Source: a bacterium OM1 bin76 (GTDB taxonomy: Bacteria; Actinomycetota; Acidimicrobiia; Spongiisociales; ZC4RG35). From it: DNA of 64,000 nt. The notes under the pieces were generated by a model. That model saw nothing but the letters and a program-made list of their open reading frames with translations. It did no database searches and was not told where the DNA came from. The translations under genes were made by a program, and so were the position numbers. This document shows, in pieces, positions 1,440 through 13,557 of the stretch; position 1 is the first letter of the stretch, and each line of letters opens with the position of its first letter. The stretch is taken from positions 15,583 to 79,582 of the forward strand of contig MPNA01000007.1 in assembly GCA_002238785.1 (NCBI GenBank), in the 5' to 3' direction.

Positions 1440-2804
1440 TGTTCGCTTGAGACGACCCGGCGTCGAAGGGGCGACAAGGTTTACGAGTACTTGTCGTTGG
1501 TGGAAACGGTTCGCAAGGGGTCGAAGATCGGCCATCGGACCCTGCTGCGCTTGGGAGAGGTCACTGCTTTACGCGAATCGGGACAGTTGGGACGGATCAT
1601 TTCGGCGTTGGAACGTCACCTCCACACCGAACGCGTCGACGTTGACGGAATAATCGCCGAGGGAGCACCCGCGGTGGGAGCGGTAGCCGCCGCGGCTGCG
1701 GTCTGGAAACAGTTGGATCTCGAGGGGGTTTCTTCTCACAGGTGGGCGCGGAACGCCGTGCTGACGTTTTGGAGGATGCGGTGTTCGCGATGGTGGCCAA
1801 CCGGCTGGTAGCCCCGTGTTCGAAACGTCGGTTGCCCGAATGGACAGAACATGACGTGATCATGCCTTCTGGGTGGTCAGCGCCGTCGTTGGACCAGTAC
1901 TACCGTGCCCTGGACGCCGTCGCCGACGTCAAAGAAGAGACCGAGGAGCACCTTTACCGGCGGTTGTGCAACCTGACCAACCTGAACCTTCGGCTGGTGT
2001 GCTATGACCTGACATCCACCTATTTCGAGGGTTCCACCCGACCCTCCGACGCGTTCCCGTCGCGGGTGTTCGGGTATTGGCGGGATCATCGCTCGGACAG
2101 GCCCCAGATCGTGATCGGTCTGTTGTGCACCACAGACGGGATCCCGATAGCCCATCATGTGTTCGCGGGGAACACCAACGACGCCTCCACCCTACCCGAC
2201 GTGTTGGAAGACCTGGCCAAGAGGTTCGCGGTGGGTCGGATCTGTGTGGTTTCCGACCGGGGTCTCATATCAGCATCTAACCTGGAAACGGTCACCCAAG
2301 CGGGGTTTGATCACCTGATGGCCACCAGACTCCACCGCGATCCGATCACCGCCCAAGCACTGGCGGCTGTCGACCAGGACACCGTGTGGGTTGAGATCCC
2401 CGAACACGGTTGCAGAGCCGCGGATGTCACCCTCGAAGACGGGACCCGCACGGTGGTGGTCGAAATGCGACGTTCGTGCCCGTCGGGACACCCAACGCAC
2501 CGCCGAACTGATCGCCGCTGCCGAAACCGGGTTGTTGGCGTTGGAACATCGCGTCCGCTCGGGAAGGCTCAAAGACCCGGCCAAGATCGGGAGAGCCGCG
2601 CAACGCATCCTCGGCACCGGGCGGGTCGGGCGACTGTTCGACCTCGAAATCGGACCAGGCCGGTTTCTCTACCACTACAACGAAGAAGCCCAAGCCTACG
2701 AGAAGCTGTTGGCGGGTCGTTATGTGCTGACCACCAGCCTCACACCCGCACAAGCCGACACTGGAATGAATCCCCCCGGCTTTTGTGGAGGCTTTCTATC
2801 TTGA
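1440..2804 (+). pseudogene. IS1634-like (IS4 superfamily) DDE transposase, split over three frames
   Basis: ORF 1398..1811 has GDKVYEYLSLVETVRKGSKIGHRTLLRLGEV, typical of an IS1634 N-terminus. ORF 1742..2845 has ...LVCYDLTSTYFEG...RDHRSDRPQIVIGLLCTTDGIPIAHHVFAGNTND. ORF 2391..2804 has ...FLYHYNEEAQAYEKLLAGRYVLTTSL, a typical C-terminus. There are two frame changes. Confidence 0.7.
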
Positions 2805-2855
2805 GAGGATGGAGTCTCATGGCCAGTAATAGTTCTGTTAGGTAATGCGACTGAG

Positions 2856-3125
2856 TTGCGTGAGCGTGCTGTGCGGATGGTCCTGGAAGGCGTCCGTGAG
2901 GGGGTGTATTCCTCCGAGTGGGCAGCGATCCGGGCGGTGGCGCAGATGCTGGGACCTACTCCCGAAACGGTTCGTAAGTGGGTTCGTAAGGCCGAATCGA
3001 GGGTCTCAGCGGCAGCGGTGGACCACAAACGTCGGATCGTTGAGTTGGAACGGGAGAACCGGGAGCTGCGGCGAGCGAACGAGATCTTGAAAGCTGCTTC
3101 GGCTTTTTTCGCGCGGGAGCCCTGA
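2856..3125 (+). CDS. IS3-family transposase OrfA (HTH / leucine-zipper)
   Basis: 89-aa MRERAVRMVLEGVREGVYSSEWAAIRAVAQMLGPTPETVRKWVRKAE...RIVELERENRELRRANEILKAASAFFA, a classic IS3 OrfA. Confidence 0.8.
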   Translation: MRERAVRMVLEGVREGVYSSEWAAIRAVAQMLGPTPETVRKWVRKAESRVSAAAVDHKRRIVELERENRELRRANEILKAASAFFAREP

Positions 3126-3143
3126 TCCGCGACCGCCAAGGTA

Positions 3144-4083
3144 GTGGCTTTCATCGATCGTTATCGGACCAGGTTCGGGATGCGGGCCGATCTGTCGGGT
3201 GCCTGGGCGAGCGCAATGTCGGAATGCGCCCCTTCCACCTACTACGCCTTCAAGTCCCGTCCGCCGTCAACAAGAGCCCAGCGCGACGGATGGCTTGTTG
3301 AACAGATCCGCCGCGTGCACCAGGAGAACTATGGGGTGTACGGCGCGGTGAAGGTATGGGCACAGTTGAACCGTGAAGGCACCCGAGTGGCGCGGTGCAC
3401 AGTGGAACGGCTGATGCGAAACACCGGTCCTGCGTGGTGTTTCCCGCGGGCGGCGCAAGGTGTGCACCACCGAACCCTCCGGGACTGACTATCCGGCTGA
3501 TCTGGTGGAACGGGACTTCACCGCCGGGGCGCCAGATCGTCTTTGGGTTGCCGATCTCACGTATATTCGCACGCGGGCTGGGTGGGTGTACGCGGCGTTC
3601 ATCATCGACGTGTACTCCAAGTTCATAGTGGGATGGCAGACCGCTACCACCCTCCGCGCCAGCCTGGCCGTGGACGCGTTGGAAATGGCTTTGGCCACCC
3701 GCCGGCGTCGAAACCCCGAGAAATTGATACATCATTCGGACAGGGGAAGCCAATATCTGTCCGTGCGGTACACCACCCGTTTGGCCGAAAGCCAGATCGT
3801 TTCCTCGGTGGGAAGCCGGGGCGACAGCCTGCGACAACGCCCTGGCCGAGACCACCATCGGTCTTTACAAGACCGAACTGATCAACCAACAGGGACCATG
3901 GCAAAACCTGGACCACACCACCTTCGCCACCCTCGAGTACATCGACTGGTACAACCACCGACGCCTACACGGAGGAATCACCCCCGACAACACCTACATC
4001 CCCCCCGCCGACCACGAAACCGCCTACCATCAAACCACCCCCAGAAAACCCGCAACCACACAAACAACCCACTCTCCATGAAA
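3144..4083 (+). pseudogene. IS3-family transposase OrfB (rve integrase core), internal frameshift near 3830
   Basis: DDE core motifs are present. The reading frame jumps between ORF 3460..4194 and the +1 frame, where the conserved C-terminal segment is encoded. Confidence 0.7.
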
Positions 4084-4174
4084 CCCGGGGAGGTTCAATC
4101 GAAGACAACCTCAATCTCATGCCCCCGACGACTACACAACTGGAACAGCGCCCACGACCTCTACAAATCAACTA

Positions 4175-4207
4175 GGGAGGGCAACCACCGCTAGAGCTTG
4201 CCCTCCC
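4175..4207. repeat. Perfect 10-bp inverted repeat (GGGAGGGCAA / TTGCCCTCCC) with a 13-nt loop at the IS3 right end
   Basis: Read directly from the sequence. No following T-run, so not a canonical intrinsic terminator. Confidence 0.5.
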
Positions 4208-4480: not shown

Positions 4481-5146
4481 TCACTCGTTTTCGAAAAACG
4501 TTGTTAGGTCGAAGGCATCGTTCAATATGGCGCCAACTATCAAACTCAACAAGGTGATGGCTGCCATACTCCACCATTTACGACGGTCCTCTAATGCGGA
4601 TACTCTCTCGGCAAGCGCAGTGGGATTATAGGTTGGGCCTCTGAGGTTACTGATGTGAGAATCGCTAATATTAACTGCATTCTGTCGCGGACCACAATAT
4701 AGATCCTCAGTTGCCTTGTCGAGAGAAACGTACCACAACTGGAAAGTCCGTTGGTCTTGTGTAAGGCTGATAGATTTGGAGCCTGCATTAAACACGGCGA
4801 AGATCAGTTTGCCTTTGTAGCCAGGATCAACGTGGAAGCCAGAGACATTTATCAATCCTTGCATCTTCTTGCTCGATTTCATTGACAGCAATCCGACGGC
4901 GTTGGCGGGGATTTCTACAACTTCGGAGATCAAGAGTTGAGCGAATTGTCCAGGGGGAATATTGACTCGTTCCTTATCATCTATTTTGACTCTGATCCTG
5001 GTTCCTGCGTTGGAACTATTGGTAACCCATGCTTCGTCTCCCATCGAGAGTTCATATGAACAGTTCTTAATGTGTGACTCATCGTATGGCTCGATCAAGC
5101 TCGGTAGTCTTGTCTTGAGGGTCTCACTACTCCAGAAACCGGACAT
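4481..5146 (-). CDS. dCTP deaminase/dUTPase-fold (Dcd-like) protein with a C-terminal transmembrane anchor; catalytic Glu replaced by Ala
   Basis: 221 aa. IEPYDESHIKNCSYELSMGDEAWV and GFHVDPGYKGKLIFAVFNAG align with Dcd motifs (E. coli: HRIDPGWSGCIVLEFYN), but the LEF glutamate is an alanine. C-terminal WWSMAAITLLSLIVGAILNDAF is a predicted TM helix. Strong AAGGAGA RBS upstream. AT-richer than the flanks. Confidence 0.7.
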   Translation of the reverse strand: MSGFWSSETLKTRLPSLIEPYDESHIKNCSYELSMGDEAWVTNSSNAGTRIRVKIDDKERVNIPPGQFAQLLISEVVEIPANAVGLLSMKSSKKMQGLINVSGFHVDPGYKGKLIFAVFNAGSKSISLTQDQRTFQLWYVSLDKATEDLYCGPRQNAVNISDSHISNLRGPTYNPTALAERVSALEDRRKWWSMAAITLLSLIVGAILNDAFDLTTFFENE

Positions 5147-5294
5147 TCCTATCTCCTTAGCTATTAGGACCTATCGATTCGGAAGGTGGAAAGGCCTTAC
5201 TATCTAACCGCCTGCTACATAGATTAGGATTACTTCGCGGTTTCGCAATTCCTACTTGTGCAATCCGGCTGTCTTGGGCTCCCTCCATGTCGTG

Positions 5295-5333
5295 GGAGGG
5301 GTGTTTTGCGGAGGGGTGTTTTGCGGAGGGGTC
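5295..5333. repeat. Tandem direct repeat, about 2.6 copies of the 15-mer GGAGGGGTGTTTTGC
   Basis: Read directly from the sequence, in the intergenic gap between the TS-like gene (5514) and the Dcd-like gene (5146). Confidence 0.6.
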
Positions 5334-5513
5334 TTGCCTAGTCCATAAGAAGGCACTCGCTGGAGTGCGACGCCGGGGCGGTGAACATAGTGTTAGGGGC
5401 GGTTCGACCGATTGCTCAGGTCTTTCGGGATCTTGGGGGTTCACAGGGCCGCTTTGGAATTGGGTGAGGGATAGCCTAGCTTGAGAAGCCAGCACAACCA
5501 GTTCCATCGCACC

Positions 5514-6569
5514 TCATCTTGCTCGGCCCACTGACCTGTATTGTTGACGTTCGTTCTGCGAGCTTATGCTAACCCTCCTCAACCAACGATGCCATAACTT
5601 TCTATACACAGGATTGGTGCAGGTGGCCATAGCGTGATCATGCATCTCATCCCACCCTAGCCTCCGTGCTATTTCACTGGCCAGCACGGCAAGCATGTTA
5701 CGGAATGCCTCCGGGCCTTCATCCCAACGGACGACTCTTTCCAGTTGTGGGCGCCGTAGGCCAGGCGCGATCAGTCGCTCCATCCTTCGGCCCAACTCTT
5801 TGAATGCCGCTTCTGATTTCTCCTTGGGGAGCGCAAGCGAGTCTGTGTTTCGTAGCCGGTTTGGCGGCGTCTGTGAGGCGAATACATTCTCTTCGTCATG
5901 TTCATACATGTGCAGGCTGTCGCTCAGTTGGTGATAGGGACCACAATCGACGCCAAGCCACCCGGCCACAACCTCTTGAAGACTGGTGAACTGTACGAAG
6001 TTGTGAGGAACCCCTAAGAAGAGATCATTGCTTCGTAGTACCTGAAGCCACTCCAGCTTCCCTTCGCGGACCTTCAACAGTGCGAACACATTGCAAGGGA
6101 CATCCCGACTGGTGGGCAAACCCTCAGGGTCGGGAAGGTCGACGGACGAGTCCCAGATTTGCAGTACAACCTGCCGGGTGTCCGGGTTACTGCTTAGCAC
6201 CTGATAGGCCCGAGTTAGTTGGTCTACCCCCATGTGGTAGCGGAGTCGATGCCCATAGGCCCCATGAAGGTGGGGGCCTTCTCCCACATAGTCGGAGAGT
6301 TTGCTGTTCCACGCCCGGAGGAAAGCAAGATCGTTACGACCTGTCATGATCCAAACGATCTCGGCAATGGCGAAGGCAACATTCATGGGAGGTTGGCGGG
6401 AAACCACCCATCGTTGTCGCGGATCATTGATGGTGATGGCTGCATGGAGGATTTCTTTGGTTGCACCACCTCTACTTGGTTGGAGGAGGACACCATGGCC
6501 TGCCCGGAATGCCTCCACGACTTGCTCCCAGACTTCATCTGCGTCTTGGCCTTCAAACGCCCTAATCAT
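5514..6569 (-). CDS. Thymidylate synthase-family (ThyA / pyrimidine-nucleotide C5 hydroxymethylase-like) protein, paralogue 1, with a ~90-aa C-terminal extension
   Basis: 351 aa, colinear with ThyA: AIAEIVWIMTGRNDL (ELLWFIKGSTN), GVDQLTRAYQVLSSNPDTRQVVLQIWD (DQL..IK.NPDSRRII.SAWN), VPCNVFALLKVREGKLEWLQVLRSNDLFLGVPHNFVQF ([36 protein letters not shown]). Nucleophile Cys retained. Asn equivalent to N177 retained. PCH becomes PCN and RR becomes RQ. Confidence 0.75.
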   Translation of the reverse strand: MIRAFEGQDADEVWEQVVEAFRAGHGVLLQPSRGGATKEILHAAITINDPRQRWVVSRQPPMNVAFAIAEIVWIMTGRNDLAFLRAWNSKLSDYVGEGPHLHGAYGHRLRYHMGVDQLTRAYQVLSSNPDTRQVVLQIWDSSVDLPDPEGLPTSRDVPCNVFALLKVREGKLEWLQVLRSNDLFLGVPHNFVQFTSLQEVVAGWLGVDCGPYHQLSDSLHMYEHDEENVFASQTPPNRLRNTDSLALPKEKSEAAFKELGRRMERLIAPGLRRPQLERVVRWDEGPEAFRNMLAVLASEIARRLGWDEMHDHAMATCTNPVYRKLWHRWLRRVSISSQNERQQYRSVGRAR

Positions 6570-8247
6570 GAGATGTTCCGAGAGGAGGTATCAGGCTGTT
6601 GATGCCCCACTTGGGGGGATACCAATACTCTATTGGCTCTGTTGAGGGGCGATAGATTTGCTTGATACGGGAACGGTTGCCGATGCCTTTGAAATCGGGA
6701 TGCTTAACGCGGGCATACTTTGAGACCTCGCAGAAGAGGTTCTGGCAGTCTATGAGCTGAAGTCTTCTGCCCCAAAGGTCTACAAACCGCAGGCCGAGGC
6801 GGTCGAACTCTTCTTCCTGGCGTTCGGTGACCATTCTTATGAGTTCAGCGTCGGTCAAACCGCCCAGGTCAGTGAAACATTTACGGACGCCGTCTATCGC
6901 CCCGGGGCCAGGAACGACGAACTCCATTTCTGAGAAGTCGATAACTTCGCTGTAGTTCAGGTCGGTCACGAATTGGTAGGCAAGGAAATCGCCGATGGAC
7001 GGGTAGGAGCGCAACAAACCGAAGGCGTCCCGCATCCTGCGTGTCCCTGCGATCCTCTTGGGTAACTCGTCTGCCATCATCCGCTCGATGAGCCGGAGAT
7101 GATTGCGGTGCTTTCGGGAATGTCCGAAGACGCGCCCGGCCGATGGCATAATGTAGGCGGCGGAATAGATTGGTCGACCCTCGGCGAGTGCTTGCGACAG
7201 CACCCCGTTGTAGGCGTCGAACGAGTATGACGAGTACTCAACATCCCCCAAGGCGGCTCTGAGCAGCTCCCAAGTCCCAATCCTGTTGAAAACCTTGAAT
7301 AGCAGGGTACGAAAGAACACTTCTTCTGAGGATTGTGGACCCTGGTAGATGACGTTGCGGATGAGGTACTGGCTTACCCGATCAGAGGCTCGGTATGCGT
7401 TAGTGAACTTGAAGCGGGCCAATATCGGGTCGTCCGTCCAGGGAGGTGAACAGCCTTCGAGTCGGCGAAAGAACACTTCTTGGCGTTTCACCGCGAACCG
7501 CCAATAGGTGTCATAGACAACGGTCGGCTTCGCCGGTGAGAGGCGTGGCATTTTCGGTGGCTGGAGTGTTCTGCCATCAAGGAGTGCTGGTTGGCCACTT
7601 AGCTGAGCCACTGCCGGAGAATCTTGCCGTTCGCTGAATCTGCGTACGGTAGAAATAATCGTCTTCCACGCCATGTCAAGGGCGTGCTCAACAGACGAGT
7701 CGTTGTGTAGCGTGACCACATGGGAGCGGATCTGTTCTCGCTTCGCCAGCGCCCGATACCCGTCCCGCAGGTCATCACCATTGTCTGAATCCGCACTCTC
7801 GCGCTCTACCAGAAACACCATGTCCGGCTTGATTTGCTTCCAGTGGAGTCGCTCCAGTTCGATCATCGCCTCCAACGAGGGCTCTGACACTCCAAATGCA
7901 CCGCCATAGACCCGTGTGGACCACCAGAAGCGGTCCAAGACTATCCAAGAGCCTGTACGGAGGGCAGGCAGGATGTGCTCTTCTACGGCCTCTATATGAG
8001 CCGCAATGTGCAGGATCTGAAGACTTGTCGCGTTGACCTTGCCGAGGCCAAAGCTGGGTGCGTCGTGGTGGAGGTCATAGACCAGACGGCCCAGAGAGCC
8101 TAACTGCCTCCCTGGAAAGGATAGGTTTTCGCAGGGAACGCCCGCCTCGTGGAGGCGGTTTGTGAATAGCTCGGCAAGGGTACTCTTACCGACGCCGTCG
8201 CGCCCCTCGAACACGATGAGCCTGCCCGGGGTTTGCTGCTCTGTCAT
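6562..8247 (-). CDS. Fusion protein: N-terminal dTMP-kinase-family P-loop (d)NMP kinase plus C-terminal ~340-aa domain of unknown function
   Basis: 561 aa. The N-terminus matches Tmk: LIVFEGRDGVGKSTLAELF (FIVIEGLEGAGKTT), LSFPGRQ (TREPGGT), ILHIAAHIEAVEEHILPALRTGSWIVLDRFWWSTRVYGG ([38 protein letters not shown]), PDMVFLVE. The C-terminal part (TVVYDTYWRFAVKRQEVFFRR...ILARFKFTNAYRASDRVSQYL...GIGNRSRIKQIYRPS) matched no family I could name. Its start overlaps the next gene (ATGA). Confidence 0.7.
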   Translation of the reverse strand: MTEQQTPGRLIVFEGRDGVGKSTLAELFTNRLHEAGVPCENLSFPGRQLGSLGRLVYDLHHDAPSFGLGKVNATSLQILHIAAHIEAVEEHILPALRTGSWIVLDRFWWSTRVYGGAFGVSEPSLEAMIELERLHWKQIKPDMVFLVERESADSDNGDDLRDGYRALAKREQIRSHVVTLHNDSSVEHALDMAWKTIISTVRRFSERQDSPAVAQLSGQPALLDGRTLQPPKMPRLSPAKPTVVYDTYWRFAVKRQEVFFRRLEGCSPPWTDDPILARFKFTNAYRASDRVSQYLIRNVIYQGPQSSEEVFFRTLLFKVFNRIGTWELLRAALGDVEYSSYSFDAYNGVLSQALAEGRPIYSAAYIMPSAGRVFGHSRKHRNHLRLIERMMADELPKRIAGTRRMRDAFGLLRSYPSIGDFLAYQFVTDLNYSEVIDFSEMEFVVPGPGAIDGVRKCFTDLGGLTDAELIRMVTERQEEEFDRLGLRFVDLWGRRLQLIDCQNLFCEVSKYARVKHPDFKGIGNRSRIKQIYRPSTEPIEYWYPPKWGINSLIPPLGTSHD

Positions 8248-9059
8248 TTGCCCGCCTTTAACTGTTCCAAGATTCTCTCGACATCCCGTGCCAGTTTCTG
8301 AAGGGATCTCTTTGTGCGATCGCGTTTCGCAGGACTTGCCACGCAGGTCACCTGGGTTAGCTGCCTACCCATCTCCTGGGCCATGAAACGGCCGAGCCGG
8401 CACAAGCCCAGATAGTTACCGTAGGCACGTTCATAGATGTACTGCGTGGCATAGAACCCTGTCACCGTCAACCCGTCTGAGCCTTGCTGCGCAAACGCTA
8501 CCTGTTGAAGGCAGGGAAAGCCTCTCATACGCTGATTGGTGTGGTCCCTGTGTGGGTCAAAGATCGCCGCTTGTAATGCTGACCTGCGATGGTTGCCTCT
8601 GTGCCATGTTTGGATGATGTGTTCCAGTTGGTTGACGCTGTCCCCGTTGGCGGCGTTGCGGCCGTAGGCGATGAGGCGTTGGAAGTAGACGCCGTTCCTG
8701 TTGCTAGCGTCCTTGAGCACACGCGGCATGATTTGTCTGTAACGTCGGTATAGCTGTTGACGATCTGCTTCCGGGTTCCAGAGCGAGACGGGGAAAATGG
8801 TGTTGGCGACCTTGTGACAGGAGAGGGATTTGGCTTCGGCACCCAAGGCATCATCAAGGAGTTCACGTATTGGTGCTACTTCCAGGGGCTCCCCATGGTC
8901 GAACCCGCGAATCACGACTGTTAGAGGCGCAATCTCACTCCTGGCCATCAAGTGGAGGAACGCCCTAGCCCAGGCGACGGAGAGGTTGCCCTCTTCAATC
9001 GTAAGTGATCTACCCATCCCCAGCTTCTTCCCAGTGCCGGTACAGGGCACGCCCCACAT
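8244..9059 (-). CDS. Thymidylate synthase-fold protein, paralogue 2 (divergent; most catalytic residues other than Cys are lost; C-terminally short)
   Basis: 271 aa. VPCTGTGKKLGMGRS (DRTGTGTLSIFGHQ), NQLEHIIQTWHRGNHRRSALQAAIFDP ([26 protein letters not shown]), GFPCLQQVAFAQQGSDGLTVTGFYATQ ([24 protein letters not shown]), NYLGLCRLGRFMAQE (NIASYALLVHMMAQ). Lacks the equivalents of R166, D169 and N177. The 5' end overlaps the ImmA gene. Confidence 0.6.
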   Translation of the reverse strand: MWGVPCTGTGKKLGMGRSLTIEEGNLSVAWARAFLHLMARSEIAPLTVVIRGFDHGEPLEVAPIRELLDDALGAEAKSLSCHKVANTIFPVSLWNPEADRQQLYRRYRQIMPRVLKDASNRNGVYFQRLIAYGRNAANGDSVNQLEHIIQTWHRGNHRRSALQAAIFDPHRDHTNQRMRGFPCLQQVAFAQQGSDGLTVTGFYATQYIYERAYGNYLGLCRLGRFMAQEMGRQLTQVTCVASPAKRDRTKRSLQKLARDVERILEQLKAGK

Positions 9060-9870
9060 ACCCGCGTCGCGAAACGCGGACGAACGTAGACCAAGAATTG
9101 CCGGCTTCCAGCCGGCCGACTCCTGGGCTGGTCGCTATGAAGATAGAGCCCTGCTCAATGTCTGAAAAGGGCTCGAGGCAGACACTCTCTGGCTGCGCTC
9201 CACCTAGGACCAATATGAGGTCACCCACTTCCACATCCACGGCCCTCCCGATCCAGTGGGTATCCAACACCAAGGCGGTCTGTGACGCGTACCACCCGAG
9301 GAGCAGCGATTGAGCTTTACGGGAGCCCACTCTCAACAGCGTCCTAGCCCGCATGCCCGGTAACACTTGGAGCGCGCTTCGCAGATGGTGAACCAGCGTC
9401 GCGTATCCAACGCCAAAGTAGCCGGCAACCATAAAAGCCTGCTCGGGTGTACAGTCCTCCATGCTCCACCCTCGAAGCGCAAATGCCTTGGATACCGCCA
9501 ACTTGGGCATGAGAAGAGCACCCGCAAAGCAATCCGCCATGAACTCCTTGGGATCGAAACGAGGGTTGTCCCATTGCCCAACCAGTTCGTCGATATCCAC
9601 TCCGTCACTCTGGTTGTGGTGACCAAGTTCGTGGGCACAGGTAAACGCCCGGCGGCCGGGTGGGCGTAACGAGGAGACGATAATAGTGGGAGTGGAAACA
9701 GATAGGTACATTCCCTCCATACTGGGAAGGTCCAGAAACCGAACCTCAATGCCAAGTTTCTGAGCGAGATCGTACACAGAGACAGCGTGGTCAAGCCCGT
9801 AGCCAACCGAAAGACGGGTACGGAGGGCCGCCGCCGTTGCCTCTCGGGCTATCAATCGCCGGTTGCTCAT
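9010..9870 (-). CDS. ImmA/IrrE-family (Peptidase_M78/DUF955, CapP-like) zinc metallopeptidase
   Basis: 286 aa with HEXXH at CAHELGHH. Sits immediately downstream of, and overlapping, an XRE HTH gene, the classic XRE/ImmA arrangement. Confidence 0.8.
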   Translation of the reverse strand: MSNRRLIAREATAAALRTRLSVGYGLDHAVSVYDLAQKLGIEVRFLDLPSMEGMYLSVSTPTIIVSSLRPPGRRAFTCAHELGHHNQSDGVDIDELVGQWDNPRFDPKEFMADCFAGALLMPKLAVSKAFALRGWSMEDCTPEQAFMVAGYFGVGYATLVHHLRSALQVLPGMRARTLLRVGSRKAQSLLLGWYASQTALVLDTHWIGRAVDVEVGDLILVLGGAQPESVCLEPFSDIEQGSIFIATSPGVGRLEAGNSWSTFVRVSRRGYVGRALYRHWEEAGDG

Positions 9871-10220
9871 TCGATGTGATTTCTCGGAGCGCGGAGCGCC
9901 TGGACAAGCTGGAGAATGCGGTCAAGGTCCTCTTCTCGCAACTTGCTCAACTCCCTCGCCGCTAGCTTCACGCGATCCGCAGCCAAGCTCGACTCCTCGT
10001 CCCCCTCACCCACGATCCAAGAAATACTGACCCCGTACATCTCAGCCAGCGCAGTGAGTTCCTCGGCAGATACCCTTCTGCGAGCTGCTTCGATCTCGGA
10101 AACCGTAGGACGGTGCCAGTCCAGACTCTTGGCTACCTGACCTTGGGTGAGACCTGCCATCTCTCTCGACAGGCGAAGACGTGATGCGATTGCCTTTCGC
10201 TTCTCTTCGTATTTGGTCAT
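9867..10220 (-). CDS. XRE-family helix-turn-helix transcriptional regulator (CapH/ImmR-like)
   Basis: 117 aa: ...LRLSREMAGLTQGQVAKSLDWHRPTVSEIEAARRRVSAEELTALAEMYGVSISWIV, an HTH_3-type motif. Confidence 0.8.
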   Translation of the reverse strand: MTKYEEKRKAIASRLRLSREMAGLTQGQVAKSLDWHRPTVSEIEAARRRVSAEELTALAEMYGVSISWIVGEGDEESSLAADRVKLAARELSKLREEDLDRILQLVQALRAPRNHIE

Positions 10221-10223
10221 CCT

Positions 10224-10508
10224 TTAGGCCTCAGAGCCGACATAGGAACAAAGGGAGTCCGCTATCTCGCCAACCGACAATGCACGCTTCCCATCCTCAG
10301 AAATGAAGGGGTTGTAGTTGCCGGGAAGCTCCACCTTTAGGGACTCCGAAAGCATGACGGTCGCTTCCACCCCGCTAAGGCTGTCGAAGCCCTCCACCCC
10401 AAACACCGGGCACGTTGACGCATCTATGCCAGCACTTGACCGCCCGCTCACCTCTTGGACCTCGACGATGACTTGAACCACCCTCTTCAGGATCTCTTGC
10501 TTGTTCAT
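10224..10508 (-). CDS. Small carrier-protein-like (ACP/PCP-fold) protein, first gene of the operon
   Basis: 94 aa. LKRVVQVIVEVQEV...FGVEGFDSLSGVEATVMLSESLKVELP resembles the ACP DSL phosphopantetheine-attachment motif and helix pattern. AGGAGG RBS 5-11 nt upstream of the ATG. This assignment is tentative. Confidence 0.4.
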   Translation of the reverse strand: MNKQEILKRVVQVIVEVQEVSGRSSAGIDASTCPVFGVEGFDSLSGVEATVMLSESLKVELPGNYNPFISEDGKRALSVGEIADSLCSYVGSEA

Positions 10509-10526
10509 AAGTACCTCCTTACCGCA

Positions 10527-10543
10527 GGTAAGATTATCTTACC
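10527..10543. promoter_or_regulatory. Perfect palindrome GGTAAGAT-T-ATCTTACC about 19 bp upstream of the operon start codon; candidate XRE operator
   Basis: Read directly from the sequence. 8-bp arms with a 1-nt spacer, just upstream of the RBS of the first gene of the minus-strand operon. Confidence 0.45.
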
Positions 10544-10853
10544 ATAAGAAGCCGAGCGGTCAAAACATAACCCAATATTGCTCACCGACAGACCGGTCCT
10601 AAAGGGACAGCGTTGTTGCCCGTCCCGCATTGCTTTGGTAGGCGGCGTTCGGGCTGGCTACCGTCAGGATGGGCGGTTCGGATGTATGCGGGGCTCCTGA
10701 TATTTGCTTGGAGAGCATCTTGATTGGGAGACAACGAGCTAGGTCCAGATCCGTGTTGGAGAGTGGTGGCAACAGGCCGCTGTAAGGAGTCGGCGATTCT
10801 TTGTCAAGAGTCTCCTGGGGGCGGGTGTAACTGTATCCTGACGGACTGTCATC

Positions 10854-11072
10854 TCATGGGCACGTACCCACAGTAGAAGGAGCCATCACCCGGAACGGCA
10901 ACACCCGACTGGTGGAAACCCGCCCGAAGCTGATCCACACCGTTCCATCCACCAACTGTTCCAACCCCAACCGATCAACCAACGTCCCCGCCGTTAACAA
11001 CCCGGCGTCAGCCACCAAAGACTCATCATCGAAAACCACCCCAAAACGATTCGATACTCTGCAATACTCCAC
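10854..11072 (-). pseudogene. Transposase N-terminal remnant (IS1380/IS4-like)
   Basis: 72 aa: NRFGVVFDDESLVADAGLLTAGTLVDRLGLEQLVD, typical of IS1380/IS4-family transposase N-termini. Nothing follows it. Confidence 0.45.
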
Positions 11073-11431
11073 TCACAGGAAGTGCCTCCCAACTGTGGAC
11101 CAACAGCTTCTTCGCTAACAGCTATTGTCCCAGATCAGAGGCACTCTCCGCCTCTATCCACCCACCCACCAACCACACCCCATCGGTGGATTGAGGCTAA
11201 GAATCCGTCAAATCGCTATTCTGACTTTACGGCCCCGCCGCCCTGTGTCTTCAACTGGACCTAATGTCTTTCTCTGTCGAAGACGAATGCCTGTACTCCA
11301 TCCGAACTGATGTACCCTCTCTCTCAGGTCAAGAGTGGAACAGAGCAGTCGGTCACGGTAAGTTTTGGTACTATAAGTAGTATTAAGGCACTCTACTGTG
11401 GCTGTGACCTGGGATTATGTTGAGATCATAG

Positions 11432-11523
11432 CGGAGGCGGACGGGAATCGAACCCGCCGGGGATCGTTTGACCCCCCACCGGTTTTGAAGACCGGGGAGC
11501 CCACCAGGCGCTCGCTCGCCTCC
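11432..11523 (-). tRNA. selC: tRNA-Sec (selC-like), anticodon UCA, 92 nt, class II
   Basis: Reverse complement: GGAGGCGAGCGAGCGCCTGGTGGGCTCCCCGGTCTTCAAAACCGGTGGGGGGTCAAACGATCCCCGGCGGGTTCGATTCCCGTCCGCCTCCG. Anticodon stem CCGGT/ACCGG with loop CUUCAAA (identical to the E. coli selC loop), a long variable arm, T-loop TTCGATT, and 13 nt (8+5) between T-loop and discriminator. The 8th acceptor pair is an A.C mismatch. CCA is not encoded. Confidence 0.7.
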
Positions 11524-11557
11524 AGTGTGGAAGGGTAACCGGTGGGAGGGTGGTACT

Positions 11558-11992
11558 GTGAATGAGATCATGGGCGATCCCGAGAAGATGCAGGATCAGC
11601 AGGCGGCCCTGCGGGTCACCGGACTGGTGGACACGCCCCGCCGGTGGGATCTGGAGGCAATCTCTGGGCTTTCGGGGCAAGTTGCCGAGGCCGGGGGACG
11701 GGGTGTCTCGGCCGGTTCTCTCTTGGAGGCCAGTGGGCCGCGGGGCGGGTTTGTGTCGGTGGAGAGCGAAGATGGTGCCTACCGGGCTTCCATCCCGATT
11801 AAGGAGTTGTCCTCCAAGGGAGTGGTGGTATATGGGTTGGGCGACGGGCAACTTCCCAGGGAGAGGGGAGGTCCCTTCCGGATGCTGGTGCCGGGCGGCC
11901 ACACCCTGTGCTGGAACGTGAAGGGGGTGGGGGAGATGCGGGTGACCGCTGAACAGGAGCCTGACAGCGTGCCTGCCAATCCGACCCACTGA
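11558..11992 (+). CDS. Small molybdopterin-binding oxidoreductase (Oxidored_molyb, sulfite-oxidase-fold) domain protein
   Basis: DGAYRASIPIKEL..GVVVYGLGDGQLPRERGGPFRMLVPGGHTLCWNVKGVGEMRV matches the SUOX/YedY Mo-domain core (LAY.MNGEPLP..HGFPLRLVVPG.YG.KWL..I). GGGAGGG RBS before GTG 11558. Confidence 0.55.
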   Translation: MNEIMGDPEKMQDQQAALRVTGLVDTPRRWDLEAISGLSGQVAEAGGRGVSAGSLLEASGPRGGFVSVESEDGAYRASIPIKELSSKGVVVYGLGDGQLPRERGGPFRMLVPGGHTLCWNVKGVGEMRVTAEQEPDSVPANPTH

Positions 11993-12327
11993 GGCGTGGA
12001 CACGCTTCGGTGGGTGTCGTGATGAGGGTTGAGATGACGACGGTGAGGTCCACGATGGCAAGTCTTCGTAACGGGGGAACTGTCCGCCTGTAGGCCTCTT
12101 CAGTCTGCTGAGAGTCGTTCTGTCTGGTTACGCGTCTCGGGGCACTTCTTGGTTGATTTGTAACGGTTGTTCCGGGTGTCGTTGGGAGTTGTTCTGGCTT
12201 TTGCCCTGTACCGAGACGAAAAGTCGACTGAGGGGAGGACTCCAAACATTAAGTTATTAGTGTTTGTTTTCATAACTTAGTGTTGTGTAGAGGTGTTTTG
12301 TCACAGGACCTGTGCATACTGGTGGAT

Positions 12328-13557
12328 ATGAAAACAGAGTCTGCGAACCGGGCGGCCGTGAACAGGGCGCGTCTGCTGAGGCCTACCATGCCGGTGGCCG
12401 AGGCGTCGGTGGAACAGCTTAGACAGCGGATAAGGTCCACGATCCGCGTTCAGAACCAGGCTGCTGCGGACCGTGCCGAAGCGGTAGCGGAACTGGATCG
12501 ACGCCAGGGTACAGAATTGGTGGAAACCGTGCTGCGGGAGGATGGGCTGTTGGGCAGACGGCGGGCCCGGTCGGAGGTGGAAACTGCCAAAGAGTTGGAA
12601 GAGTTGCCCAAGACCCGGGAGGGTTTCCAAAAGGGAGACATCTCTGCGGACAACGCCCGCATCCTGGCCAGTGCTAACCAGCGGGGAACCATCAAAGAGG
12701 ACGAGTTGTTGGATGATGCCCGTTCTCAGTCTCCTGATAAGTTCGCCCGGTCGGTCCGAAAGCACGAACAACGACAGTCCCGTGATGATGGTGTTTCGAG
12801 GTTGGAGCATCAGCGTTCCCACCGGTTCGCGAAGATCACCACCGATGCCGACGATGGGATGACCGTGTTGTATGGGCGGTTCGACCCTGTTACGGGCGCT
12901 CGGATCGAAACGGCGGTGTCGGCGATGATGAACCAGTTGTGGCACAAAGAGGACCCCACCGATCGGGCCACGGCTCCACAGCGGATGGCCGACGCCCTAG
13001 CAAAACTTCTTACTCGTCAAGGGAAGGGCGGGGAGGGTCGTTCTCAGGATGTGCGACTGTTGTTGATCGCCGACTACGACGCGGTCAGCGGACGGTTGGG
13101 CAACCCCCGCTTGGAGAACGGCACCCCGGTTCCGGCGGGGACGTTGCGCCGTTTGGGGTGTGATGCTCAGGTACTGCCTGCTGTCTTCTCGGGTGGTTCG
13201 ATACCGCTGGACCTGGGGCGGGCCCGGCGTACCGCCAGCGGTTCCCAACGCGCTGCTTTGGTTGCCCGCGACAGACACTGTGTGGGTTGCGGCGCCAAAG
13301 CGTCCTGGTGTCAGGCTCACCATATCGTTCATTGGCAGGACGGAGGCCCCACCAGTTTGGAGAACATGTGCCTGCTGTGCAGCCGGTGTCACCACAAGGT
13401 TCATGACCAAGACTGGACCGTGCACCAAACCCCAACCGGGAAGTACACGCTACGTCGGCCGCCGATCACCGACTGGCGACGACCCTCCCGCCAAACCAAC
13501 CACCACCCCCGCCGTCGGCGACGCACCCGCAAACACCCCATCAAACAAAGAAAATGA
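12328..13557 (+). CDS. DUF222 + HNH endonuclease domain protein (REP13E12-like)
   Basis: C-terminal CVGCGAKASWCQAHHIVHWQDGGPTSLENMCLLCSRCHHKVH is an HNH motif. The N-terminal region is DUF222-like, as commonly seen in actinobacteria. Confidence 0.7.
   Translation: MKTESANRAAVNRARLLRPTMPVAEASVEQLRQRIRSTIRVQNQAAADRAEAVAELDRRQGTELVETVLREDGLLGRRRARSEVETAKELEELPKTREGFQKGDISADNARILASANQRGTIKEDELLDDARSQSPDKFARSVRKHEQRQSRDDGVSRLEHQRSHRFAKITTDADDGMTVLYGRFDPVTGARIETAVSAMMNQLWHKEDPTDRATAPQRMADALAKLLTRQGKGGEGRSQDVRLLLIADYDAVSGRLGNPRLENGTPVPAGTLRRLGCDAQVLPAVFSGGSIPLDLGRARRTASGSQRAALVARDRHCVGCGAKASWCQAHHIVHWQDGGPTSLENMCLLCSRCHHKVHDQDWTVHQTPTGKYTLRRPPITDWRRPSRQTNHHPRRRRRTRKHPIKQRK

Follow-up and report, generated by a model that had tools for sequence, protein, structure and literature searches.

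Repressors that are cleaved by a protease, as in the ImmR/ImmA, DdrO/IrrE and CapH/CapP pairs, are the best-understood coupling of DNA damage to prophage induction, DNA repair and the expression of immune operons; ImmR and DdrO are known protease substrates. The capH/capP-like pairs found by Lau et al. all had an upstream location and ran on the strand opposite to the operon that they regulate (10.1101/2022.04.27.489752). Another system to be considered is DS-4 ('NTTI', DefensePredictor, Science 2026), which comprises thymidylate synthase (TS)-like, small nucleotide kinase, HMUDK_hel, TIR and Nmad2 components and gave E. coli protection from phage (PMC13092281). In a stretch of 64,000 nucleotides of contig MPNA01000007.1, from bacterium OM1 bin76, an Acidimicrobiia MAG (the window, that is, the whole stretch of DNA that was analysed), an XRE-family helix-turn-helix (HTH) gene and an ImmA/IrrE-type metallopeptidase gene are located inside an operon of nucleotide-metabolism enzymes that is preceded by a palindrome. 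We consider it probable that the XRE protein is an autorepressor of this operon, relieved by the IrrE-like peptidase, and that the two form a self-resetting switch. A sequence-only reading had taken the pair for a CapH/CapP-like module. This is partly supported: the genes do encode an XRE repressor and an ImmA/IrrE peptidase, with capH and capP as best models, and the pair can be placed in the class of ImmR/ImmA, DdrO/IrrE and CapH/CapP, although the position of its genes and its lack of the GAF domain and of the cysteine switch set it apart from canonical CapH/CapP.

All coordinates correspond to the whole window, and all parts of the operon are on the minus strand, from 10508 to 4481, with the acyl carrier protein (ACP) homologue as the first gene and a dCTP-deaminase-like gene as the last. 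The promoter region and the first three genes are the following:

10558 to 10563, minus strand: −35-like hexamer TTGACC (promoter scan; TTGAC enriched at equal offset over 78 loci)
10536 to 10541, minus strand: −10-like hexamer TAAGAT with TG extension, within the left arm of the palindrome (promoter scan)
10527 to 10543: putative operator core, a 17-bp perfect palindrome GGTAAGAT-T-ATCTTACC (family consensus tgGTAAGATwtTCTTACc)
10518 to 10523, minus strand: third half-site GGTAAG, 3 nt past the palindrome, overlapping the Shine-Dalgarno sequence AAGGAGG (10520 to 10514)
10224 to 10508, minus strand: gene 1, ACP homologue, 94 aa (family profile against solved ACPs, Pfam PP-binding)
9867 to 10220, minus strand: gene 2, XRE-family HTH repressor, 117 aa (Pfam, PADLOC)
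9010 to 9870, minus strand: gene 3, ImmA/IrrE-type Zn metallopeptidase, 286 aa (Pfam, PADLOC, HELGH)

The junctions between genes 1 to 6 measure +3, −4, −8, −4 and −8 nt, and the genes are one translationally coupled operon in which the regulators, XRE and peptidase, hold places 2 and 3. The overlap reported for the XRE gene and the HEXXH peptidase gene is real (4 nt, ATGA, minus strand), and the enzyme genes come right after the pair, with the following overlaps of −8, −4 and −8 nt. The palindrome also stands ahead of the operon, as had been said; the gene directly behind it is, however, the 94-aa open reading frame (ORF) at 10224 to 10508, which had been overlooked, and not the XRE gene.

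The palindrome GGTAAGATTATCTTACC is located at exactly 10527 to 10543. It had been placed between a promoter and the ribosome binding site (RBS), and this has to be corrected, since the −10 hexamer lies inside its left arm. The −10 is assigned there because TTGACC, 16 nt, TG and TAAGAT form the sole sigma-70-like match upstream. If arms of 8 nt and a loop of 0–3 nt are required, the window contains nine perfect palindromes, versus 5.8 in shuffled sequences, so the palindrome is not improbable alone and its reality rests on position and conservation. Further copies, which the sequence-only reading proposed to seek throughout the genome, were searched for in the 64-kb window, where none occurs with up to three mismatches (0.05 expected).

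Conservation was evaluated on loci from two sources. A genome scan with the peptidase alignment yielded 80 loci; the operator was counted on 82 non-redundant ImmA-anchored loci and the accessory genes on 116. The pattern GTAAG-N5-CTTAC, with at most one mismatch, is found in 78 of the 82, located 290–390 nt upstream of the XRE start and just before the ACP gene, against a background of 47 matches elsewhere in 1.28 Mb of these loci (about 0.02 expected per 600-nt window). As an independent anchor, metagenomes and viral contigs were scanned with the 257-aa protein encoded by gene 4, to remove the bias of the peptidase anchor; among the 51 loci found in this way with enough upstream DNA, 47 have the operator, 49 the peptidase, 50 the XRE gene and 49 the ACP gene. 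This conservation in both sets suggests that the palindrome is an operator, as had been proposed.

Upstream regions with dissimilar flanks align solely over TTGAC, about 17 nt, GGTAAGATwtTCTTACC, 4 nt and GTAAGGA. Columns outside the search pattern are conserved as well (G−8 in 60 of the 78 loci, A−2 in 71, T−1 in 69, T+2 in 65 and C+8 in 48), as is the −35 across the 78 loci, with flanking columns at about 0 bits. The putative operator is conserved in at least ten phyla, including Chloroflexota, Actinomycetota, Planctomycetota, Cyanobacteria, Proteobacteria and Bacteroidota, and is present on plasmids of the cultured Sinorhizobium fredii NXT3 and Allocoleopsis PCC 7113.

The third half-site, GTAAG with at most one mismatch, occurs at a fixed offset in 55 of the 78 loci, for a background of 1.5% per position. 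In four loci whose RBS and ATG are farther off (L058, L068, L073 and L085), it is still found beside the palindrome, shifted by 1–2 nt in three of them, and it is therefore more than a Shine-Dalgarno sequence. In addition, two Melainabacteria genomes, in which a MazG/MazG_C pyrophosphohydrolase gene lies downstream of the cassette, present a second full operator, palindrome and third half-site, before this gene (L081, 12742–12775; L086, 6171–6205), which is what a transcription regulon predicts. With the −10 in the left arm, transcription would start within the right arm, making a CTTACC/GGTAAG hairpin unlikely in the mRNA, and an Rfam scan near the operator returned no RNA family.

The XRE protein matches Pfam HTH_31 (6e-15) and HTH_3 (8e-13). 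The best PADLOC models are capH for this protein (6.9e-12, positions 5–99 of 103 covered) and capP for the peptidase (4.7e-17); the PADLOC RmrA models and the NCBIfam 'spr1629 family repressor/antitoxin' match the two proteins too. An HTH domain (residues ~11–69) is followed by an acidic linker and by putative C-terminal helices opening with LAAREL. Conservation extends over the LAAREL plus DLDRLL segment, in which A87, A88 and R89 do not vary. The best solved relatives of the XRE profile are ICEBs1 ImmR (7t8i, 1e-9) and DdrO (2e-6), and the CapH HTH domain is matched at 7e-3. The recognition helix HRPTVSEIEAGRR is nearly invariant across the family, which matches the near-invariant operator that the XRE protein would bind. 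Co-variation of helix and operator gave no usable signal, both being nearly invariant.

The peptidase matches Pfam Peptidase_M78 (PF06114, 1.3e-18), the domain called 'IrrE N-terminal-like', and has the HELGH motif at residues 80–84. It is composed of a peptidase domain (1–132), a helical HTH-like subdomain (142–191) and an all-beta domain (199–267). Residues H80, E81, H84 and E109 are invariant in 25 aligned sequences, down to 34% identity, and the spacing from the HEXXH histidine to the downstream Glu ligand is 25 residues versus 27 in E. coli CapP. No cysteine occurs between H84 and E109 in the 25 aligned members, in which the loop keeps G90 and D94, and thus the cysteine switch is absent. 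R73, located 7 residues before the first Zn histidine, is positionally equivalent to CapP R90 and IrrE R85, which contact single-stranded DNA (ssDNA; 10.64898/2026.05.16.725639).

An initial AlphaFold2 (AF2) model of the peptidase, built on 13 close sequences (N-terminal domain pLDDT 62), gave no IrrE among its Foldseek matches. The final model, with 40 more diverse sequences, reached a pLDDT of 83.7 and a pTM of 0.84, and its best solved matches are IrrE (3dti, 2.5e-6) and ssDNA-bound PprI (8sln, 1.4e-5), in alignments that span the N-terminal ~160–180 residues only. The sequence profile matches 3dte at 3.5e-4. In this model, the N-terminal two thirds of the peptidase show an IrrE-like fold. 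Residues 199–267 are modelled as eight strands and no helix (pLDDT 84–93), and the Foldseek matches of this domain are weak beta-sandwiches only. When the C-terminal 94 residues were searched against 1.84 billion representative proteins, 316 clusters were found, and in all the matches listed but one the beta domain is C-terminal, in proteins of ~270–320 aa or in shorter fragment-like ones. Judging from these matches, the domain appears to be specific to this peptidase family.

We propose the following mechanism. The XRE protein, its C-terminal helices probably joining it into a dimer or larger oligomer, would bind the three-half-site operator, GGTAAGA-N3-TCTTACC plus GGTAAG. Since the operator covers the −10, the predicted transcription start and the RBS, its occupation would block RNA polymerase. 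The co-translated 286-aa Zn-peptidase would be held latent until a signal, presumably of stress or infection, is sensed via its helical and C-terminal beta domains. The activated peptidase would then cleave the XRE protein, likely near the invariant AAR with which the C-terminal helices begin, and the cleaved protein, unable to oligomerise, would come off the operator. Derepression would lead to the production of the ACP, the TS-fold enzyme, the kinase/HMUDK_hel protein, the second TS-like enzyme and the dCTP deaminase. As repressor and protease are on one transcript, the circuit would reset itself.

The enzyme genes that follow the regulators are:

8244 to 9017, minus strand: gene 4, divergent TS-fold protein, 257 aa (NCBIfam, hhalign, synteny)
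6562 to 8247, minus strand: gene 5, fusion of a dTMP-kinase-like P-loop domain and HMUDK_hel, 561 aa (Pfam)
5514 to 6569, minus strand: gene 6, variable accessory, TS/dUMP-hydroxymethylase-like, 351 aa (Pfam)
4481 to 5146, minus strand: last gene, variable accessory, dCTP-deaminase-like, 221 aa (Pfam, NCBIfam)

The family profile of gene 1 (33 members) matches solved ACPs at about 1e-8, and Pfam PP-binding matches 14 of the 33. Ser43, in a DS(L) motif, is the sole invariant residue and aligns with the phosphopantetheine serine of the solved ACPs. The Allocoleopsis orthologue is named 'acyl carrier protein' by PGAP. Of the 116 loci, 13 have a dedicated holo-ACP synthase (AcpS) gene, an argument for actual use of the protein as a carrier. 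We know of no described nucleotide or DNA modification pathway with an ACP.

For gene 4, the start at 9017, called in most assemblies and overlapping the peptidase gene by 8 nt, is more likely than the one at 9059 (271-aa ORF, 8244–9059). Its product matches NCBIfam TIGR03283 (2.2e-11), and an identical protein is named thymidylate synthase by NCBI. The hhalign comparison with the TS-like family gives a probability of 5.6%, yet the DQL, RR..DP, PC and N motifs are in register; a profile search against the PDB sequences returned no match. The operon contains two TS-like genes because gene 4 encodes a very divergent TS fold, and it is the invariant one of the two. The gene 5 product matches Pfam PF18723 (HMUDK_hel, the helical domain of 5-hydroxymethyldeoxyuridine (5-hmdU) DNA kinase) at 1.4e-111 and PF02223 at 2.8e-15. 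Gene 6, present as a TS-like gene in 49 of the 116 loci, matches Pfam Thymidylat_synt (1.3e-21), and the last gene matches Pfam DCD (4.9e-16) and TIGR02274 (2e-19). Between these two accessory genes, a 116-aa ORF (5157–5507, minus strand), Pro/Ser-rich and with a SAKHPSAKHPS repeat, was rejected as a gene, being of low complexity and with no homologue beyond identical contigs; it is probably a lineage-specific spacer.

The enzymes would divert the dC/dU pool, with dCTP drawn towards dU, into pyrimidine nucleotides or DNA modified at C5, and the most plausible purpose would be to counter phage. Two observations point to such a defence role: HsdR, AbiEi, TIR, VapBC and ABC-3C genes are among the neighbours in related loci, and DS-4 was validated as a defence system in 2026.

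The relatives of the peptidase number more than 3000 at 90% clustering. The 80 loci of the peptidase scan are distributed over Chloroflexota, Latescibacterota, Thermodesulfobacteriota, Planctomycetota, Acidobacteriota, Proteobacteria, Cyanobacteria, Melainabacteria, Verrucomicrobia and Bacteroidota. The order ACP, XRE, ImmA, 257-aa TS-fold protein and HMUDK_hel is kept in nearly all of about 130 loci, and the TS-like, dCTP-deaminase, MazG and AcpS genes vary among them. In one of the Melainabacteria genomes mentioned above (L081), an AcpS gene and a gene for a 455-aa protein are inserted between the TS-fold and HMUDK_hel genes; from its sequence, read by eye, we take the latter protein to resemble a flavin monooxygenase. 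Three metagenome loci (L164, L167 and L170) present a second XRE and ImmA pair a few kb off, on the opposite strand in L164. The cassette is also carried by conjugative plasmids of Allocoleopsis franciscana PCC 7113, Nostoc sp. C057, Sinorhizobium fredii NXT3 and Rhizobium rosettiformans. No description of this cassette or of the peptidase variant was found in the literature.

The 257-aa protein had no match in 50,697 phage genomes, for which reason a phage self-modification module was rejected, and only three matches were found among 2.9 million viral contigs. A search of the phage genomes with the peptidase gave partial peptidase-domain matches in Gordonia phages only.

In the window, the cassette occupies a stretch of 52–58% GC between a tRNA-Sec gene (11431–11523, minus strand), ~900 nt upstream of the operator, and insertion sequence (IS) elements, with IS3/IS4-type transposase remnants at 1742–4194; the neighbouring DNA has 63–66% GC and the rest of the window 60–67%. 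A direct repeat derived from tRNA-Sec and flanking the island was looked for and not found. The cassette looks like a horizontally acquired island at a selC-type locus. The ~890 nt from 10544 to 11430 contain no convincing gene, and some assemblies call a 72-aa ORF there (10854–11072). Gene-free stretches of 540–1075 nt, unalignable between loci, precede the operator in L011, L012 and L015. A truncated ORF with a molybdopterin-oxidoreductase domain (11525–11992) abuts tRNA-Sec, and a DUF222/HNH endonuclease gene of actinobacterial type (12280–13557, plus strand) lies just past it.

Several points weigh against autorepression with protease relief. The conservation of the operator is partly accounted for by the −10 (TAAGAT) and the Shine-Dalgarno sequence (AAGGAG), and three half-sites are ill-suited to a simple dimer. 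CapP and IrrE have a C-terminal GAF domain, which provides half of the ssDNA groove, and an all-beta domain takes its place here; activation by ssDNA or DNA damage is for this reason less safe to assume, and the signal may differ. In CapH/CapP, induced expression is unneeded for protection from lytic phage (Lau et al., 10.1101/2022.04.27.489752), which leaves the defence pay-off of such a switch uncertain. Finally, in the ~130 loci the XRE/peptidase pair is nearly always accompanied by the ACP and TS-fold genes, and this could mean a role beyond transcription.

The last point leads to the alternative that survives best, unlikely as we hold it to be: the pair and the ACP would be an integral part of the effector system, with autorepression secondary, as in type II toxin-antitoxin loci. 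The pair could be an antitoxin-like unit, of the kind of RosmerTA RmrA or spr1629, restraining a toxic nucleotide-modifying activity, or the substrate of the protease could be the ACP or the TS-fold protein. The fixed company and order of the five genes, their translational coupling and the matches of the RmrA and spr1629 models to both proteins are in agreement with it, and the family-specific C-terminal beta domain suggests a system-specific ligand. On the other hand, the top-scoring models are capH and capP and not RmrA, and the XRE and peptidase are separate proteins here but fused in RmrA. In its C-terminal region the XRE protein appears to retain the helical arrangement of CapH and DdrO, like that of a protease substrate, and the second operator before an accessory gene in L081 and L086 fits a transcription regulon.

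A mobile-element switch of the ImmR/ImmA type is quite improbable; here the pair would control the induction, excision or transfer of an integrative element or plasmid, and the enzymes would guard the element against restriction by modifying its DNA ahead of transfer. ICEBs1 ImmR is indeed the best solved relative of the XRE protein, the cassette lies in a low-GC island beside tRNA-Sec and IS elements and on conjugative plasmids in four cultured strains, and thymidine hypermodification serves anti-restriction in phages (PMC8989533). However, the conserved cassette includes no integrase, excisionase or transfer genes (an integrase was seen 5 kb away, in one plasmid only), the island is not flanked by a tRNA-derived direct repeat, the operator precedes the enzyme operon and MazG only, and the cassette is absent from the 50,697 phage genomes, with the three matches in 2.9 million viral contigs given above. 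The weakest explanation, a strong promoter and RBS, or a 5′-UTR hairpin (CTTACC/GGTAAG) masking the Shine-Dalgarno sequence, in place of a repressor site, is very improbable: TAAGAT is a plausible −10, AAGGAG a plausible Shine-Dalgarno sequence, and CTTACC-N3-GGTAAG can pair (a scan flagged a stem-loop at 10518–10532), but the right arm TCTTACC is near-invariant though accounted for by neither element, a start inside this arm would leave the 5′ strand of the hairpin incompletely transcribed, the third half-site stays by the palindrome when the Shine-Dalgarno sequence moves, the symmetry of the arms and their 11-bp centre-to-centre spacing fit an HTH dimer, and the region has no Rfam family.

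Under autorepression with protease relief, the family varies a known switch, with the ssDNA-binding GAF domain swapped for a family-specific one and the switch placed inside the operon that it controls. It thus allows a direct test of the contribution of the C-terminal domain to signal sensing. The conservation of the operator across phyla makes binding and reporter experiments easy to design, and cultured strains with the cassette on plasmids are available (Sinorhizobium fredii NXT3, Allocoleopsis PCC 7113 and Nostoc sp. C057). The genes under control, among them one for a carrier protein whose role is unexplained, form an uncharacterised relative of DS-4, which was validated as late as 2026. 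As a wider and doubtful proposal, the cassette could be an undescribed, widely transferred and inducible immune system, in which a protease with a beta-sandwich sensor responds to a signal other than ssDNA and the ACP thiol takes part in C5-pyrimidine chemistry. Such a signal could be a modified nucleotide, phage DNA with bases of the 5-hmU type, or the degree to which the ACP is loaded. The thiol, carried on phosphopantetheine, could for example capture the exocyclic methylene intermediate formed by the TS-fold enzyme, or take the place of a phosphate installed by the kinase. If true, this would be a carrier-protein-dependent modification of nucleotides or DNA.

Compared with DdrO/IrrE, the solved structures nearest to the peptidase are those of this group (3dti, 3dte, 8slm and 8sln), and the XRE protein has DdrO as one of its top solved matches. 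DdrO recognises a 17-bp palindrome (RDRM) in promoters, the same size as the palindrome described here. Unlike the present pair, DdrO and IrrE regulate a DNA-repair regulon from unlinked chromosomal genes, outside any mobile enzyme cassette, and IrrE has a GAF-like C-terminal domain. ImmR/ImmA shares with the cassette a repressor gene located immediately before the gene of the anti-repressor protease and co-transcribed with it, and ImmR (7t8i) is the solved protein that the XRE protein matches best in sequence. It differs in that the genes regulated here encode nucleotide-metabolism enzymes, and in that ImmA is without the beta domain found in this family.

CapH/CapP, associated with CBASS, consists of an HTH repressor and a metallopeptidase activated by ssDNA (Lau et al. 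2022, Calloji et al. 2026). CapH has its HTH at the N-terminus and, at the C-terminus, a two-helix dimerisation domain in which the cleavage site lies. The likeness to CapH/CapP includes a small XRE repressor with a putative C-terminal helical region beside a peptidase of ~286–288 aa, the HEXXH motif with a downstream Glu ligand, the central helical (HTH-like) subdomain, the conserved arginine 7 residues ahead of the first histidine, and the association with a putative immune operon. The capH and capP genes share the promoter region of the operon that they regulate. In contrast, the pair described here is co-directional with the operon, as internal genes 2 and 3 on the same strand in nearly all of the ~130 loci. 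The cysteine switch, present in many but not all CapP, is missing from this peptidase. The CapH site of E. coli is upstream of the −35, but here the −10 and the RBS are overlapped by the operator. In addition, the pair is bound to one cassette, with an ACP gene ahead of it, and is not a plug-in for many systems.

The phage thymidine hypermodification pathways (5-HMUDK, aGPT-Pplase; PMC5889632, PMC8989533) resemble the cassette in a dUMP-hydroxymethylase-like TS homologue, in kinase chemistry on 5-hmdU and in dU supply via dCTP deaminase. The aGPT-Pplase, PLP and radical-SAM enzymes were not found in the window operon, and the cassette differs in being cellular or plasmid-borne and in having an ACP, often with AcpS. 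With DS-4 the cassette has in common the TS-like, kinase and HMUDK_hel domains. DS-4 lacks the XRE, ImmA, ACP and second TS-fold proteins; kinase and HMUDK_hel are fused in the window operon, from which TIR and Nmad2 are absent. In locus L011 (1–10700), an IS element interrupts the cassette behind the TS-fold gene, and a DS-4/NTTI-like set (dCTP-deaminase-like, HMUDK_hel, Nmad2 and two TIR proteins) adjoins it divergently, an arrangement that suggests module exchange between DS-4-like systems and those of the cassette.

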